Under the pieces are notes generated by a model. The model was not told where the DNA came from, ran no database searches, and was given only the letters and a program-made list of their open reading frames with translations. From Eledone cirrhosa (taxonomy: Eukaryota), in contig OZ024759.1 in assembly GCA_964016885.1 (NCBI GenBank), positions 23,808,001 to 23,872,000 on the forward strand: a stretch of 64,000 bases of DNA, given 5' to 3'. The position numbers and the translations under genes are program-made. Positions within the stretch are counted from its first letter, which is position 1. Each line of letters begins with the position of its first letter. This document shows, piece after piece, positions 3,395-46,930 of this stretch.

Positions 3395-4159
3395 ACAATA
3401 GGAAGTATGATACATAGCCTAATGTACTATTTATTTTAATAAATTACCGTATTGTACACTCAGCTGAAAATGAGTACCAGCAATAGCTGGGGGTTTAACC
3501 CTGCGATGAACTAGCGTCCTATCCAGGGGCGGGTCTTGTACTCTCAGTTGCTTCACGCCATGAAGCTCCAGCCAAATGAGCCTTCTGGCTAAGACAGACT
3601 TTAGGCTTTTAGATATATGTATATATGTCCTTGAGCAAGACACTTTATTTCACGTTGTTTCTTCTACCTGGAGTTGCGACCGATAGAGAGTTGGAAAGAC
3701 CAACGGAAACATTGTTTCCTCGGCCCGATGTAACGAAAGCCGATCGACTATCGATATCTACATATATCTCTCTCTATATATATATAAGGTAAACAGAAAT
3801 AATAAAACAAACGGCACAGTACACGGAAGAAATATATTAGTTTAACACGAATTATTCACGGTTTGTAGACCGGAACGATCACAAAGTCGGTCACTTAGTT
3901 TTTAATACGTGTTTAGATGAAGAGTAGATCATACATATTCGTTATAATGTCAACAGAAAGTCCTCTGTTCAGATCCAACCACTTATCCACCCTCATCTAT
4001 CGATCCATCCATCACTCTATCCATCCTTACACCTGTCAATCGACCCATTCATTCATTCATTTTTCTCCAGTTACTTTATTTGTTTACCTTTTAAAATAAA
4101 TGTGTCCCAATTCGGTTTGATTCAAGGTACGAGATATATATATATATATATATATATAT

Positions 4160-4544
4160 AACGAAGGAAATGTGGTAAGGAACCAGGTGGACCATAACGT
4201 ACCAAAGTACTCAATACTTAGGGTAGTAGAGTGGGTAATAGGAACGAGTAGGACCCCGACGGCGGAGCTCAAGCCGTTTCGACGGCTAATTTAGTCCAGA
4301 ATTAGCCGTCGAAACGGCTTGAGCTCAGCCGTCGGGGTCCTACTCGTTCCTATATATATATATATAACAAAGGAATTGTGGTAAGGAACCAGATGGACCA
4401 TAACGCACCAGAGTACTCAATATTTAGGGTAGTAGAGTGGGAAATAGGAAAAAGTATGACCCCGATGGCAGAGCTGAAGCCGTTTCGACGTCCAGAAATA
4501 GCCGTCAAAACGGCTTGAACTCTGCCGTCGGGCTCATACTTTTT

Positions 4545-4549
<5 letters not shown>
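4160..4549 (-). mobile_element. Fold-back palindromic element family, copies B and C
   Basis: Two adjacent copies (4160-4353 and 4365-4549) separated and flanked by (TA)n; each ends in a ~100-115-bp palindrome. Confidence 0.75.
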
Positions 4550-4597
<48 letters not shown>

Positions 4598-38654: not shown

Positions 38655-39030
38655 GGAGGCACATGGCTTAGTGGTTAGAGCATTGGGCTTGCAATCGAAA
38701 GGTTGTGAGTTCAATTCTCAGAGCGCGTGATGTGTTGTTTCCTTGAGCAAGACACTTTATTTCACCTTGCTCCAGTTTACTCAGCTGTAGAAATGAGATG
38801 ATAGGGACTTGGGTCCCTATCATTCCACTGCAAAGTGGTCGTGGAGGTGCCTCGGCAAAAAAGCACCCAGCCCACACTGTAAAGTGAACGTGTAGGCGCC
38901 ATGGAAAAAAAGCACCCAGCACTCACTATGAATGAGGCTGGTGTTAGGAAGGGCATCCAGCTGTAGAATCAAGCCAGAATTAGTTCCCGTCCCACCCTTG
39001 CAAGCAGGGAAAAGCGGATGTAAAATGATG
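38655..39030 (+). mobile_element. tRNA-derived SINE (family 1)
   Basis: A box TGGCTTAGTGG, B box GAGTTCAATTC, CCTTGAGCAAGACACTT core; near-identical inverted copies at 6380-6712 and 21185-21509. Confidence 0.8.
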
Positions 39031-39290: not shown

Positions 39291-39326
39291 CTCCTGAATT
39301 ATAATAATGACATTGAGTGAAAAAAC

Positions 39327-39931
39327 GGCATACGTCAAGACGGGAAGTCTCAAAAGTGAAAGTAAATTTATTTTCATTTTCGAACGTCGTGTTTACATTT
39401 TGTGTGTGTGTTTAGATCTAAATTAGTTACTGAGATTAAAGACAGAATCAGAGCCTCTGTCGTTTTAACTGATTATATATATATATGTATATGTGTGTGT
39501 GTGTGTAGTTGACGGTTGAGAGAAGAGTACTCAATACCGAAGTAATCTTGTAATGAGGCTTGCAGAATGGTGAGTCCGCCATTCTAGACGCTGCTGCCTT
39601 GTAGAAGTCCCAAATCGAAGCTCTGACACTCTCGTCCCCATCATTCAGCAGGGATTTTGCCAGGCAGCCGCATCATCTCCGATGGTTGGGCTTCCTATTC
39701 GGAAATTGAAGGTGGGATTTACGTTCATGATGTTGTGGTGCACGAACGGATTTGTAGATCCTGCGGACCTTGATGTGCACACACAGCTCATAAAGAACAC
39801 ATGGAGCCGTTCAAAGAAGAAGCTTCGTCGCCAGCATGTTTCGTTTGAACACACACAAAATGTAAACACGACGTTCGAAAAGGAAAATAAATTTACTTTC
39901 ACTTTTGAGACCGCCCGTCTTGACGTATGCC
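39327..39931 (+). mobile_element. Merlin (IS1595/IS1016-like) DNA transposon, internally deleted
   Basis: ~83-bp TIRs starting GGCATACGTCAAGACGGG, perfect 8-bp TSD GAAAAAAC (39319-39326 and 39932-39939), frameshifted transposase remnant LVEVPNRSSDTLVPII..ILPGSRIISDGWASY..VVH..FVDP..VHTQLIKNTW. Confidence 0.88.
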
Positions 39932-40069
39932 GAAAAAACAATATATTTATTACTTGACAATAAAATATGTCTATACCACCATCAAATCATTATGGGGTAC
40001 AATATACATAGCGAGGGAGGCGCGAAGTGAGAAATGGGGGGGGGGGGGGGTTAACGTCGAGGCAAGAGT

Positions 40070-40079: not shown

Positions 40080-40834
40080 CGTAAAAGCAGACGATATGGA
40101 GAAATGGTGGGAGCTGTCAAGTTTTTTAGTATTCAATAAAATTTAGTAAACTTTCAACAAGAAAAGCAGCAAAGAATTGATAACAACAACAGTAAGTTAT
40201 TTATTTATCTCCTCTCATATATAGTTTTTCACAATGCTACTTATATCTTTAAACAATAAATTCTTACTTTATGTAATTGAAAATTTAGATTTAATTTGTC
40301 CTGAAAATACGAACCGTACCTTTTTTTTGTATAAATACCATGAAATTTCAAAGAAATGTTCTGTAGTAATTATCATTGTATTTCATACCATATCAATTAT
40401 GCATGTTTATAAAATATACACACATGTAGATAAATATTACACATGACATTTTGTAACAATAAGGTGTATCAAAATAGCTATATTTCTTTTTTATACAAAT
40501 GACCATATAACCATGCAGTAACGTGTACAATACATATATGAGTATAAAGTGTTATTCTTTATGTATACCATTTATAATTTTTATAAAGTTATGTATACAT
40601 TGAGCAGTTGTAAAAATTGTAAATAAAATCGAATGCATTGTTTTTATACACCAATTGTTTTTATACACAATGCATTTAATAAAATATACATTGCATATTA
40701 CAAAATGCATGTTATAAAATATATATACATTCACAATACAGGTTTATATATACAATTCAACAGCATTCTAATAAATATTGCCTGTACAGGTATTCGAAAT
40801 GTGTATACATTTCGTGGAGTGGAGAACACCCTGT

Positions 40835-40873
<39 letters not shown>

Positions 40874-40877
<4 letters not shown>

Positions 40878-41497
40878 CACGATAAATTAACGGAGGCATA
40901 GGCCGTCGTTATTCCCTGTAAATAATGTGCTCAAAGGGGAAGAGATCCTGAGCCCTTTAAAATATAATATGTTGAGAAGGTAACACACCAGAGAGAGATA
41001 TATAGTGCGTTATCAATAATACAGGGAAAAAAACCACCAGTGTATGGAATCTATAACCTATGAAAGACAGACTATAGACACGATAATTAAAAATATAAAT
41101 TAAAGCGTAAATAAATACCTTTATAACTATATAACACACGTACAAATCCAAAGATATGTTTCACCAAAAAATTTTTTGAAAGAAATGGTCTAGTCTCGGT
41201 TCATCAGCGTGTGTAAGGCCATACATTTCAGACAACACTAAGAGAATTTTACAATTGACTGTCCAGCTACACGTGGGAGAGAGAAACATCGTGTTTAAGG
41301 GCAGTGAACCAGTGGCCTCTGAGAGACGAACTGCTAGAAAGGGCAGCCCAAAGCCACTCAGAGAAGTGTGCTCAACCAAACAGATAGGAAAGACTGTTGT
41401 TAGGAGCGAAATATCACGATAAATTAATGGAGGCATAGGCCGTCGTTATTCCCTGTAAATAATGTGCTCAAAGGGGAAGAGATCCTGAGCCCTTTAA
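40874..41497 (-). mobile_element. Hammerhead-containing partial-tandem element (retrozyme or Penelope pLTR-like)
   Basis: 87-bp direct repeats at 40874-40960 and 41411-41497 (1 mismatch, period 537) enclosing the hammerhead; flanked by (TA)n/(CA)n. Confidence 0.65.
41134..41214 (-). ncRNA. Type I hammerhead ribozyme (three helices)
   Basis: Minus strand: ACACACG-CUGAUGA-accgaga...uuuuggu-GAAA-cauauc(uuug)gauuug-UA-CGUGUGU; 7-bp helix I, intact core, GUA cleavage triplet. Confidence 0.8.
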
Positions 41498-41714
41498 TAT
41501 ACATATACACACACACACATACACATGTCAAAACACTCGTATTCCCTTTTTTAAAAGTGCAAAATATATATATATATATATATTGATTGATTGATATACA
41601 TTTTGATTTTAAAATGTATGTATGTATAGGGCAAGAGTAACGCACCGCCCTATCGTGTTATTTTACTGGTACGTGGTATTTATATATATATTCGTATATG
41701 TATGTATATATATA

Positions 41715-44258
41715 TGACAGTTTATTATGTCTTTCTCTCATTACTATGATTTATAATGAGCTCGGTCTCTTTTCCTGGATCATAGGAGTTTATTGTTAAC
41801 TATTAACTCTACCTTTTGATTTTATATATATACACATATATATGTATGTATAAAGGGCGGGCAAGGGTAACGCACCACCCTATCGTGATTCTAATTAGAC
41901 CGTGCGTGTCATTTGTATATATATATGTTCGATAATTTAGCTTACGTAGTCAAATTTATTTGATTGAAAGATAAATTAATTTATAAATATTAAAAAGAAA
42001 TAACTTCAATTCGTAAAATAAGAGAGGTTTAGTGACATATTTCATTGAAAATGTTCTCAATTGGATAACAGTAAATTTCAAGAATAAAAATGTCGCCTTA
42101 TGTCCTCCTTGTGAGATCAATAAATTAAAGTACCTGTAATGCACTGATTTAATTGATGGCCTTGTGCCAAAGTAGAAAATTATGTCACTAGTATACTTTT
42201 GTTTAACATTACAAAACGAATCTGATTTAATTATAATTAAACCAATGTTCGAAGTAAAACGAAAGTAAAAAAAAAAAACGATTGGCAACTTTATTTTTAC
42301 ATGAGAAAATGTAAACTTACACATGCGTATATATGTGTCTCTCTCTATATATATGACAGTTTATTATGTCTTTCTCTCATTACTATGATTTATAATGAGC
42401 TCGGTCTCTTTTCCTGGATCATAGGAGTTTATTGTTAACTATTAACTCTACCTTTTGATTTTATATATATACACATATATATGTATGTATAAAGGGCGGG
42501 CAAGGGTAACGCACCACCCTATCGTGATTCTAATTAGACCGTGCGTGTCATTTGTATATATATATGTTCGATAATTTAGCTTACGTAGTCAAATTTATTT
42601 GATTGAAAGATAAATTAATTTATAAATATTAAAAAGAAATAACTTCAATTCGTAAAATAAGAGAGGTTTAGTGACATATTTCATTGAAAATGTTCTCAAT
42701 TGGATAACAGTAAATTTCAAGAATAAAAATGTCGCCTTATGTCCTCCTTGTGAGATCAATAAATTAAAGTACCTGTAATGCACTGATTTAATTGATGGCC
42801 TTGTGCCAAAGTAGAAAATTATGTCACTAGTATACTTTTGTTTAACATTACAAAACGAATCTGATTTAATTATAATTAAACCAATGTTCGAAGTAAAACG
42901 AAAGTAAAAAAAAAAAACGATTGGCAACTTTATTTTTACATGAGAAAATGTAAACTTACACATGCGTATATATGTGTCTCTCTCTATATATATGACAGTT
43001 TATTATGTCTTTCTCTCATTACTATGATTTATAATGAGCTCGGTCTCTTTTCCTGGATCATAGGAGTTTATTGTTAACTATTAACTCTACCTTTTGATTT
43101 TATATATATACACATATATATGTATGTATAAAGGGCGGGCAAGGGTAACGCACCACCCTATCGTGATTCTAAGTAGATCGTGCGTGTCATTTATATATAT
43201 ATATATTCGATAATTTAGCTTACGTAGTCAAATTTATTTGATTGAAAGATAAATTAATTTATAAATATTAAAAAGAAATAACTTCAATTCGTAAAATAAG
43301 AGAGGTTTAGTGACATATTTCATTGAAAATGTTCTCAATTGGATAACAGTAAATTTCAAGAATAAAAATGTCGCTTTATGTCCGCCTTGTGAGATCAATA
43401 AAATAAAGTACCTGTAATGCACTGATTTAATTGATGGCCTTGTGCCAAAGTAGAAAATTATGTCACTAGTATAGTTGTGTTTAACATTACAAAACGAATC
43501 TGATTTAATTATAAATAAACCAATGTTCGAAGTAAAACGAAAGTAAAAAAAAAAAACGTTTGGCAGCTTTATTTTTACATGAGAAAATGTAAACTTACAC
43601 ATGCGTATATATGTATATGTATGTATATATATATGACAGTTTATTATGTCTTTCTCTCATTACTATGATTTATAATGAGCTCGGTCTCTTTTCCTGGATC
43701 ATAGGAGTTTATTGTTAACTATTAACTCTACCTTTTGATTTTATATATATACACATATGTATGTATGTGTATATATATAAAATCAAACAAGAGTAACGCA
43801 CCACCCTACCGTGATTCTAAGTAGATCGTGCGTGTCATTTATATATATATATATATTCGATAATTTAGCTTACGTAGTCAAATTTATTTGATTGAAAGAT
43901 AAATTAATTTATAAATATTAAAAAGAAATAACTTCAATTCGTAAAATAAGAGAGGTTTAGTGACATATTTCATTGAAAATGTTCTCAATTGGATAACAGT
44001 AAATTTCAAGAATAAAAATGTCGCTTTATGTCCTCCTTGTGAGATCAATAAAATAAAGTACCTGTAATGCACTGATTTAATTGATGGCCTTGTGCCAAAG
44101 TAGAAAATTATGTCACTAGTATAGTTTTGTTTAACATTACAAAACGAATCTGATTTAATTATAAACAAACCAATGTTCGAAGTAAAACGAAAGTAAAAAA
44201 AAACAAACGTTTGGCAACTTTATTTTTACATCAGAAAATGTAAACTTACACATGCGTA

Positions 44259-44295
<37 letters not shown>

Positions 44296-46930
44296 GACAG
44301 TTTATTATGGCTTTCTCTCATTACTATGATTTATAATGAGCTCGGTCTCTTTTCCTGGATCATAGGAGTTTATTGTTAACTATTAACTCTATCTTTTGAT
44401 TTTATATATATACACATATGTATGTATGTATAAAGGGCGGGCAAGGGTAACGCACCACCCTATCGTGATTCTAAGTAGATCGTGCGTGTCATTTATATAT
44501 AGATATATTCGATAATTTAGCTTACGTAGTCAAATTTATTTGATTGAAAGATAAATTAATTTATAAATTTTAAAAAGAAATAACTTCAATTCGTAAAATA
44601 AGAGAGGTTTAGTGACATATTTCATTGAAAATGTTCTCAATTGGATAACAGTAAATTTCAAGAATAAAAATGTCGCGTCTCCGCTTTATGTCCGCCTTGT
44701 GAGATCAATAAAATAAAGTACCTGTAATGCACTTATTTAATTGATGGCCTTGTGCCAAAGTAGAAAATTATGTCACTAGTATAGTTTTGTTTAACATTAC
44801 AAAACGAATCTGATTTAATTATAAATAAACCAATGTTCGAAGTAAAACGAAAGTAAAAAAAAATAAACGTTTGGCAACTTTATTTTTACATGAGAAAATG
44901 TAAACTTACACATGCGTATATATGTGTCTCTCTCTATATATATGACAGTTTATTATGTCTTTCTCTCATTACTATGATTTATAATGAGCTCGGTCTCTTT
45001 TCCTGGATCATAGGAGTTTATTATTAACTATTAACTCTACCTTTTGATTTTATATATATACACATATGTATGTATGTATAAAGGGCGGGCAAGGGTAACG
45101 CACCACCCTATCGTGATTCTAAGTAGATCGTGCGTGTCATTTATATATATATATATTCGATAATTTAGCTTACGTAGTCAAATTTATTTGATTGAAAGAT
45201 AAATTAATTTATAAATATTAAAAAGAAATAACTTCAATTCGTAAAATAAGAGAGGTTTAGTGACATATTTCATTGAAAATGTTCTCAATTGGATAACAGT
45301 AAATTTCAAGAATAAAAATGTCGCCTTATGTCCTCCTTGTGAGATCAATAAATTAAAGTACCTGTAATGCACTGATTTAATTGATGGCCTTGTGCCAAAG
45401 TAGAAAATTATGTCACTAGTATAGTTTTGTTTAACATTACAAAACGAATCTGATTTAATTATAAATAAACCAATGTTCGAAGTAAAACGAAAGTAAAAAA
45501 AAATAAACGTTTGGCAACTTTATTTTTACATGAGAAAATGTAAACTTACACATGCGTGTATATGTATGTATATATATATGACAGTTTATTATGTCTTTCT
45601 CTCATTACTATGATTTATAATGAGCTCGGTCTCTTTTCCTGGATTATAGGAGTTTATTGTTAACTATTAACTCTACCTTTTGATTTTATATATATACACA
45701 TATGTATGTATGTGTATATATATAAAATCAAACAAGAGTAACGCACCACCCTACCGTGATTCTAAGTAGATCGTGCGTGTCATTTATATATATATATATT
45801 CGATAATTTAGCTTACGTAGTCAAATTTATTTGATTGAAAGATAAATTAATTTATAAATTTTAAAAAGAAATAACTTCAATTCGTAAAATAAGAGAGGTT
45901 TAGTGACATATTTCATTGAAAATGTTCTCAATTGGATAACAGTAAATTTCAAGAATAAAAATGTCGCTTTATGTCCGCCTTGTGAGATCAATAAAATAAA
46001 GTACCTGTAATGCACTGATTTAATTGATGGCCTTGTGCCAAAGTAGAAAATTATGTCACTAGTATAGTTTTGTTTAACATTACAAAACGAATCTGATTTA
46101 ATTATAAATAAACCAATGTTCGAAGTAAAACCAAAGTAAAAAAAAATAAACGTTTGGCAACTTTATTTTTACATCAGAAAATGTAAACTTACACATGCGT
46201 ATATATGTGTCTCTCTATATATATATGACAGTTTATTATGTCTTTCTCTCATTACTATGATTTATAATGAGCTCGGTCTCTTTTCCTGGATCATAGGAGT
46301 TTATTGTTAACTATTAACTCTATCTTTTGATTTTATATATATACACATATGTATGTATGTATAAAGGGCGGGCAAGGGTAACGCACCACCCTATCGTGAT
46401 TCTAAGTAGATCGTGCGTGTCATTTATATATATATATATTCGATAATTTAGCTTACGTAGTCAAATTTATTTGATTGAAAGATAAATTAATTTATAAATA
46501 TTTTTTTAAAATATCTTCAATTCGTAAAATTTAGTGACATATTCTATTCAAAATGTCTGAATTGGATAACAGTAAATTTCAAGAATAAAAATGTCGCGTC
46601 TCCGCTTTATGTCCTCCTTGCGAGATCGATAAAATAAAGTACCAGTAATGCACTGATTTAATTGATGGCCTTGTGCCAAAGTAGAAAATTATGTCACTAG
46701 TATAGTTTTGTTTAACATTACAAAACGAATCTGATTTAATTATAAACAAACCAATGTTCGAAGTAAAACGAATGTAAAAAAAAAAAAAAAAAAATGTTTG
46801 ACAACTTATTTTTTTACATCAGAAAATGTAAACATACACACGCGTATATGTGTATATATATATATATATATGACATAGTTTATTATGTCTTTCTCTCATA
46901 ACTATGATTCATAATGAGCTCGGTCTTTCT
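41715..46930. repeat. ~640-bp tandem repeat, about 8 copies
   Basis: GACAGTTTATTATGTCTTTCTCTC anchor recurs every 639-650 bp; each unit holds a family-2 SINE 3' fragment. Confidence 0.95.

Follow-up and report, generated by a model that had tools for sequence, protein, structure and literature searches.

The insertion at 40874–41497 (minus strand) of the 64,000-nt Eledone cirrhosa window, by which the whole stretch of DNA analyzed is meant, is one copy of a dispersed, high-copy, non-coding family with a unit of ~540 nt. It is a 5′-truncated 1.16-mer, here assigned to family A of a non-coding retrozyme or non-autonomous Penelope-type element, in which each unit carries one type I hammerhead ribozyme motif. 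The explanation preferred here, and rated somewhat better than even as a whole, is that the element is moved in trans by a Penelope-like element (PLE) of the Neptune type, probably from a circular RNA template. Its two parts are held with different confidence: the class, a non-coding hammerhead retroelement mobilized by PLEs, is highly probable, and the circular step is moderately favored once that class is granted. The proposal of the sequence-only reading that the 1.16-mer was mobilized by a Penelope-like reverse transcriptase (RT) is kept as regards a non-autonomous hammerhead retroelement with Penelope-like insertion features, but not as regards terminal redundancy.

The insertion comprises one full monomer (40874–41410, minus strand), bounded by the head-to-tail junction and the long 3′ end, and a truncated upstream unit (41411–41497, minus strand) that is the tail of the previous monomer alone and forms the second direct repeat. 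Several features noted earlier were borne out, namely 87-bp direct repeats (40874–40960 and 41411–41497; spacing 537, 1 mismatch in 87), the lack of a credible open reading frame (overlapping stop-to-stop frames reach at most 94 aa), and microsatellite flanks, consisting of a strandless (TA)n target at the 3′ end of the element (40834–40877) and a TA/CA run on the opposite side. The 537-bp unit holds for the window copy, which has small deletions, but not for the family, whose monomer is 541–543 nt in sister copies. Nor is the 87-bp redundancy a feature of the element; it is rather the remnant of a 5′-truncated head-to-tail tandem, and it coincides with the 88-nt tail (40874–40961, minus strand) because the 5′ cut fell at the AT-rich short 3′ end site. 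This tail lies between the short (40962) and long (40874) 3′ end sites, which by analogy with PLEs (PMC11167929) may represent two reverse-transcription start sites, and 56 of its 88 columns are identical across families A, B, and C. A 10-bp word resembling a target-site duplication is found on the plus strand at 40868–40877, overlapping the 3′ end of the element by 4 nt, and again at the 5′ junction (41497–41506). The full monomer has a G+C content of 38% and its fold as a whole unit beats chance (z −3.4). A predicted structured 3′ domain (40874–41060, minus strand; 43 predicted pairs) covers both end sites and is a putative RT-binding region, its covariation in families A and B together being weak (1 of 43 predicted pairs changed on both sides).

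The hammerhead motif itself (41214–41134, minus strand) is of type I with a long helix III, and its core, 7-bp helix I, helix III, and GUA are all as first described. The 5′ strand of helix I (41214–41208), which forms 7 bp with the 3′ strand (41140–41134), is followed by the core sequence CUGAUGA (41207–41201), helix II and its loop (38 nt; 41200–41163), the core sequence GAAA (41162–41159), helix III (41159–41142; six pairs and one U-U), and the GUA triplet, with cleavage predicted between 41141 and 41140. The base pair of helix II in the window copy is A-U instead of the usual G-C, and the usual G10.1-C11.1 is replaced by A-U, A.C, and C.C in families A, B, and C, respectively, so that cleavage may be slow. 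The loose core pattern is weak evidence on its own, with three overlapping matches at one locus where 9 of 100 shuffles of the window reach three; an isolated 101-nt hammerhead piece folds like its shuffles (z −0.58), and no Rfam hammerhead family matched the window motif at E ≤ 1 or E ≤ 10. That the motif is not a product of chance is concluded because it is conserved, with covariation, across three families. Twelve of 14 columns in helix I and the core, and 11 of 12 in the cleavage site and helix I, are common to A, B, and C, compared with 8 of 32 in the loop and upper part of helix II. The second pair of helix I is C-G in all distinct sequences of family A (18/18) and family B (14/14) and U-A in all 30 of family C, while helix III pairs 6–7 are switched between families from U-A, C-G to C-G, U-A. 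In a 21-row alignment 5 of 15 hammerhead pairs have changed on both sides, giving a covariation score that was matched by none of 500 shuffles and none of six slid controls, with the qualification that related sequences can beat shuffles and that the effective count is three events between families. Covariation across copies, whose absence the sequence-only reading had named beforehand as part of what would refute it, is therefore present in three families with the core kept, and from these comparisons the hammerhead appears to be under selection in A, B, and C.

The family is large. Searching its own genome with the 624-nt insertion gave 2,771 first-look candidates, and the 40 scored were 97–100% identical to the window insertion and had a common 3′ end. 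An exact hammerhead-core pattern matched at least 1,208 times and an exact pattern joining the long 3′ end to (AT)n at least 1,165 times, both totals being lower bounds, compared with none in the reversed controls. Walking outward from diverged pieces revealed family B, which is 80–87% identical to the window copy, and family C, which is ~69% identical to family A and has a unit of ~499 nt; intermediate subfamilies bridge the range from A to C. All three families are non-coding and keep the core, the helices, and a tail of 88–89 nt, and the junction between successive units is identical among them. Related sequence was also detected in contigs from a run of a second organism, among four DNA or unlabelled runs examined.

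The anatomy of these insertions was determined in a position-ordered sample of 86 (90 loci less four duplicates, accounting for 97 of the first 100 matches listed). Read in the sense of the hammerhead, the 3′ end is fixed at one of two sites, the long end or the short end 88 nt upstream (89 nt apart in family C), and 77 of 78 regular 3′ ends adjoin (AT)n. Thirty-five of the 86 insertions are head-to-head pairings of a long with a short end, and like pairings (long/long or short/short) do not occur; a further 14 inversions have an irregular end, and 37 insertions are without inversion. A head-to-tail junction is found in 47 and two hammerheads on the same strand in six. Arrays extend up to 4.4 units, the 4.4-unit insertion having a fixed 3′ end together with a 5′ inversion. 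The pairing of long with short arms is not absolute, since in a separate sample anchored at the long end (n = 70 arms) the partner end was short in 41, long in 4, irregular in 7, and absent in 18. Words resembling a target-site duplication occur in 15 of 52 insertions, as against a mean of 5.2 in mismatched controls. Free circular permutations, which the sequence-only reading had proposed to look for, are not what the copies show; the 3′ end occupies one of two fixed sites, and variation is confined to the 5′ end.

Truncation at the 5′ end, partial tandems, head-to-head inversions, and a one-sided tail between two fixed 3′ ends are Penelope-like traits (PMC8557442, PMC3846280), the tail of a PLE being bounded by two internal RT start sites (PMC11167929). 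The endonuclease-bearing PLEs of the Neptune/Nematis and Poseidon types (Craig, 2021, PMC8557442; Arkhipova, 2013, PMC3846280; Frangieh, 2024, PMC11167929) further resemble the present element in their AT-rich or microsatellite targets and in having a hammerhead upstream of the ends. They differ in possessing an RT-GIY-YIG reading frame, which is absent here, and in their shorter tails (30–40 nt, compared with 88 nt). Such elements are plentiful in this genome, where 10,596 GIY-YIG candidates were counted, and young families display the RT, zinc-finger linker, and C-terminal GIY-YIG of the Neptune/Nematis layout (PMC8557442). In three intact families of this type, too, insertions terminate at either of two sites next to (AT)n, the tails measuring 68, 37, and ~48 nt. 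In one of the three, 57 of 59 scored matches lack an internal stop, and the nearest named relatives of one PLE protein of the genome are from bivalve molluscs. The young families are represented by L061, L063/L230, and L232 with their sister loci, and their tails are equal to or longer than the published 30–40 nt; inspection by eye suggests a U3-A8 core variant in the first family (68-nt tail) and a minimal hammerhead in the third (~48 nt).

No homologous parent or partner emerged when 207 PLE loci representing ~7 families, a small and score-biased sample of the 10,596 candidates, were compared by blastn and profile HMMs, only separate insertions (e.g., L035 and L230) being recovered. F3, the third of the intact Neptune-type families, has a word near the short end in common with family A (a similarity reached in 4 of 200 shuffles, for the best of nine comparisons), but this was rejected as a link, F3 continuing at that point in 28 of 28 copies. 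At locus L347 (G000:C1:97043100-97046300), positions 1277–1900 hold a direct 5′-to-5′ join between a family B arm and an inverted F3 pLTR piece, both with their 3′ ends in (AT)n, which could represent one integration from two RNAs, and L351 has a similar 5′-to-5′ join with another microsatellite-ended repeat. The L347 join, one case among 208 loci, is a lead only, since 28 of 74 non-inverted 5′ joints adjoin DNA other than microsatellite.

The failure to detect a partner bears on whether the copies are pLTR stumps of an autonomous Penelope-like element that the searches missed, an explanation considered very improbable even though the insertion anatomy is identical to that of such stumps and the PLE screen took in only ~7 families. 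Attachment to a PLE reading frame, which according to the sequence-only reading would make the element an ordinary pLTR, was found in none of the 86 insertions; none has an RT/GIY-YIG frame in register with the unit or lying between pLTRs, and the autonomous PLE and its pLTR were rejected as identities for the element. PLE protein matches lie within 1.5 kb of only four of the 86 and are set apart by microsatellite or distance, while upstream a unit is invariably bordered by a further unit, by an arm in inverted orientation, or by flanking DNA. The sharing of one unit-to-unit junction by A, B, and C, and the lack of a recurrent foreign joint among the rows listed from contigs of four runs, argue in the same direction. 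Still less credible is a dispersed minisatellite spread by DNA-level processes in which the hammerhead-like motif is incidental. The missing Rfam match and the ease with which the loose core pattern arises by chance would suit it, but fixed 3′ ends combined with random truncation on the 5′ side, inversions, a preference for (AT)n targets, and the excess of duplication-like words are marks of retrotransposition, and the core and helix I have been kept while loop II diverged. A plant-type LTR retrozyme, with type III hammerheads in two LTRs and a 4-bp target-site duplication, was also rejected given the type I topology, single motif per unit, and ~10-bp word found here.

Which RNA is copied can be approached through the cleavage site, as cDNA started at the long end of a cleaved linear monomer would stop 268 nt later. 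Among 83 long-end arms, with L015 over-extended in the tally, 50 fall short of the cleavage site, three stop within 10 nt of it, and 30 pass it, so that at most 3 of the 33 arms reaching the site stop there; 27 of the 50 early stops fall at 130–195 nt, inside the predicted 3′ domain. Given so few 5′ ends at the cleavage site, the template is likely to be a circle or an uncut multimer. Sixteen of the 83 arms are longer than one unit and, because only two hold two whole hammerheads, loci competent to yield circles would be rare. Three common haplotype markers of the source are shared by the units or both arms of an insertion in 17 of 20 informative cases and are discordant in three. Divergence within insertions (1.0–1.1%) compared with that between them (1.5%) was set aside, as it fails to separate a circle from a multimer.

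The alternative to a circle that carries most weight, which is possible if on the unlikely side, retains the same element class and PLE enzyme but supposes that a small number of long master arrays are transcribed into a linear multimer and that this serves, uncut, as the template, in which case the hammerhead would merely free the 5′ end or act late. It is kept because the Anolis Poseidon PLE acted mainly on uncut RNA in vitro (PMC11167929), and the lack of any clustering of 5′ ends at the cleavage site is equally compatible with it. Arrays of 2.8–4.4 units exist, the base of helix II is weak, three haplotype cases are discordant, and in the 4.4-unit insertion (L020:852-3210) a variable site switches from each unit to the next, hinting at a dimer period. 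In a related setting, eight of nine Xenopus retrozymes tested did not cleave (Li, Clavereau & Pollet, 2026, bioRxiv 10.64898/2026.07.22.740005). Every 5′-truncated round of linear copying, however, shortens its source, whereas this lineage has kept its tandems through ~30% divergence and many subfamilies, and no haplotype specific to unit position recurs in 46 young insertions. A circular template is preferred because such copying would erode tandems and because circles have been demonstrated for the retrozymes of coral, mussel, and axolotl (PMC7229834).

Under the preferred explanation, a circular RNA copied by a Neptune-type PLE, the features seen in the DNA, namely tandem units with fixed ends, truncation at the 5′ end, head-to-head inversion, and insertion into (AT)n, would arise as follows. 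Loci with at least two hammerheads would be transcribed and the transcript cut twice, with a host ligase closing the monomer into a circle, by analogy with the circularized monomers of coral, mussel, and axolotl (PMC7229834). The PLE protein would then bind the structured 3′ domain and nick (AT)n, and cDNA synthesis would be primed internally on the RNA, from a single start site or from both with one serving each DNA end, which would yield head-to-head arms, one long and one short. In crossing the ligated cleavage site the RT could exceed one unit, thereby regenerating multimers. The window copy has a single hammerhead and hence no release of unit-length RNA by double cleavage, so it would represent a dead end. 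A bolder version, regarded as doubtful, holds that the family is a long-lived, parentless lineage of circular ribozyme RNA that hijacks Neptune-type RT-endonucleases through shape and not sequence homology, with an 88-nt dual-priming geometry of its own and a need for a monomer-competent hammerhead in order to propagate. If true, it would offer a natural system to settle the copying of circular RNA by PLEs and the purpose of their hammerheads.

The retrozyme class of animals and its link to PLEs are already published (PMC7229834; bioRxiv 10.64898/2026.07.22.740005). The non-LTR retrozymes of animals (Cervera & de la Pena, 2020, PMC7229834), for which a mussel example is given and PLE mobilization proposed, are likewise non-coding head-to-tail units of a few hundred bp with one type I hammerhead per unit, G+C below 50%, and thousands of copies. 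Their units are shorter (170–400 nt, compared with 499–543 nt here) and their helix III has one to two pairs and a palindromic loop, in contrast to six to seven pairs; fixed dual ends, a tail, and (AT)n targeting do not figure in the available text of that account. Expression and circles have been demonstrated for them. Li et al. (bioRxiv 10.64898/2026.07.22.740005), covering 35 genomes with no mollusc mentioned in the available text, similarly regard animal retrozymes (51–972 bp) as non-autonomous PLE sequences. Their link relies on pLTR homology (24 of 57 Xenopus families match known elements), which fails here in the PLE loci screened, and the mechanism they prefer is that a PLE end is amplified locally in tandem; in the present family, by contrast, it is the unit that has undergone repeated retrotransposition, bearing a PLE signature.

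PLE hammerheads (Cervera & de la Pena, 2014, PMC4209133) are also of type I, with an irregular helix II base and a position a few hundred nt before the 3′ end. In metazoan PLEs, however, the motif is minimal or has a small palindromic helix III and is thought to require dimers, and a large helix III is, in the available text, reported only for fungal and protist PLEs (PMC4209133), which makes the long helix III of this element, as read from its sequence, appear unusual for an animal. Non-autonomous Chlamys elements such as MRC1 (PMC8557442) are alike in being non-coding, multicopy, and head-to-tail with pLTR-like redundancy, but their 3′ end is similar to that of their autonomous partner, and they are mostly described as lacking hammerheads.

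No account of this family or of a cephalopod retrozyme was found in the openly accessible literature, although the supplements of the cited papers may list mollusc families. A squid genome paper gives 235 Rfam hammerhead matches with no analysis in its available text (PMC6962438). What the present family adds is a true retrozyme whose insertions bear the PLE signature directly, together with the 88-nt tail, the long helix III, and a persistence for which no parent was detected. The mobilizing enzyme of animal retrozymes has so far been proposed from co-occurrence and pLTR homology and their life cycle inferred, while here the insertion ends themselves display Penelope-type priming. The role of the hammerhead in PLEs is debated, being dispensable in vitro (PMC11167929) and possibly parasitic (PMC8557442); since an element without protein has kept a covarying hammerhead across ~30% divergence, a role for the ribozyme fold in spread can be argued. 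As the genome also contains young intact PLE families, element and enzyme can be tested as a pair in vitro, and tools for RNA-templated gene insertion could take a lead from a small cis-only RNA integrating into (AT)n.

A splice-donor-like site lies ~20 nt past the cleavage site (41119–41118, minus strand), next to an AT-rich tract, and is kept in A, B, and C. PLEs carry introns in the 5′ UTR, but an intron was rejected as a reading of this site, which is conserved without a conserved acceptor in the three families.

At least four further hammerhead families with a short palindromic helix III were encountered (L066, L077, L211, L224, and L234; L069, L121, and L237; L235:241-861; L071), one of them a 310-bp tandem, and the group represents more retrozyme or pLTR families of the genome. 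Two other repeat families with fixed ends at (AT)n often lie beside the insertions described here (L060, L065, L214, and L228; in the window, 4135–4572), and (AT)n runs are common landing sites for several repeat families. Within the window the element is adjoined by a tandem array of 639–661-bp units (~41620–46900) that holds microsatellites and a piece of a dispersed repeat. At 39326–39932, 84-nt inverted repeats (96%) surround 439 nt in a MITE-like arrangement with, by eye, a transposase-like remnant, and at 38657–38729 a tRNA-like match (31.5 bits) is probably the head of a tRNA-derived SINE.
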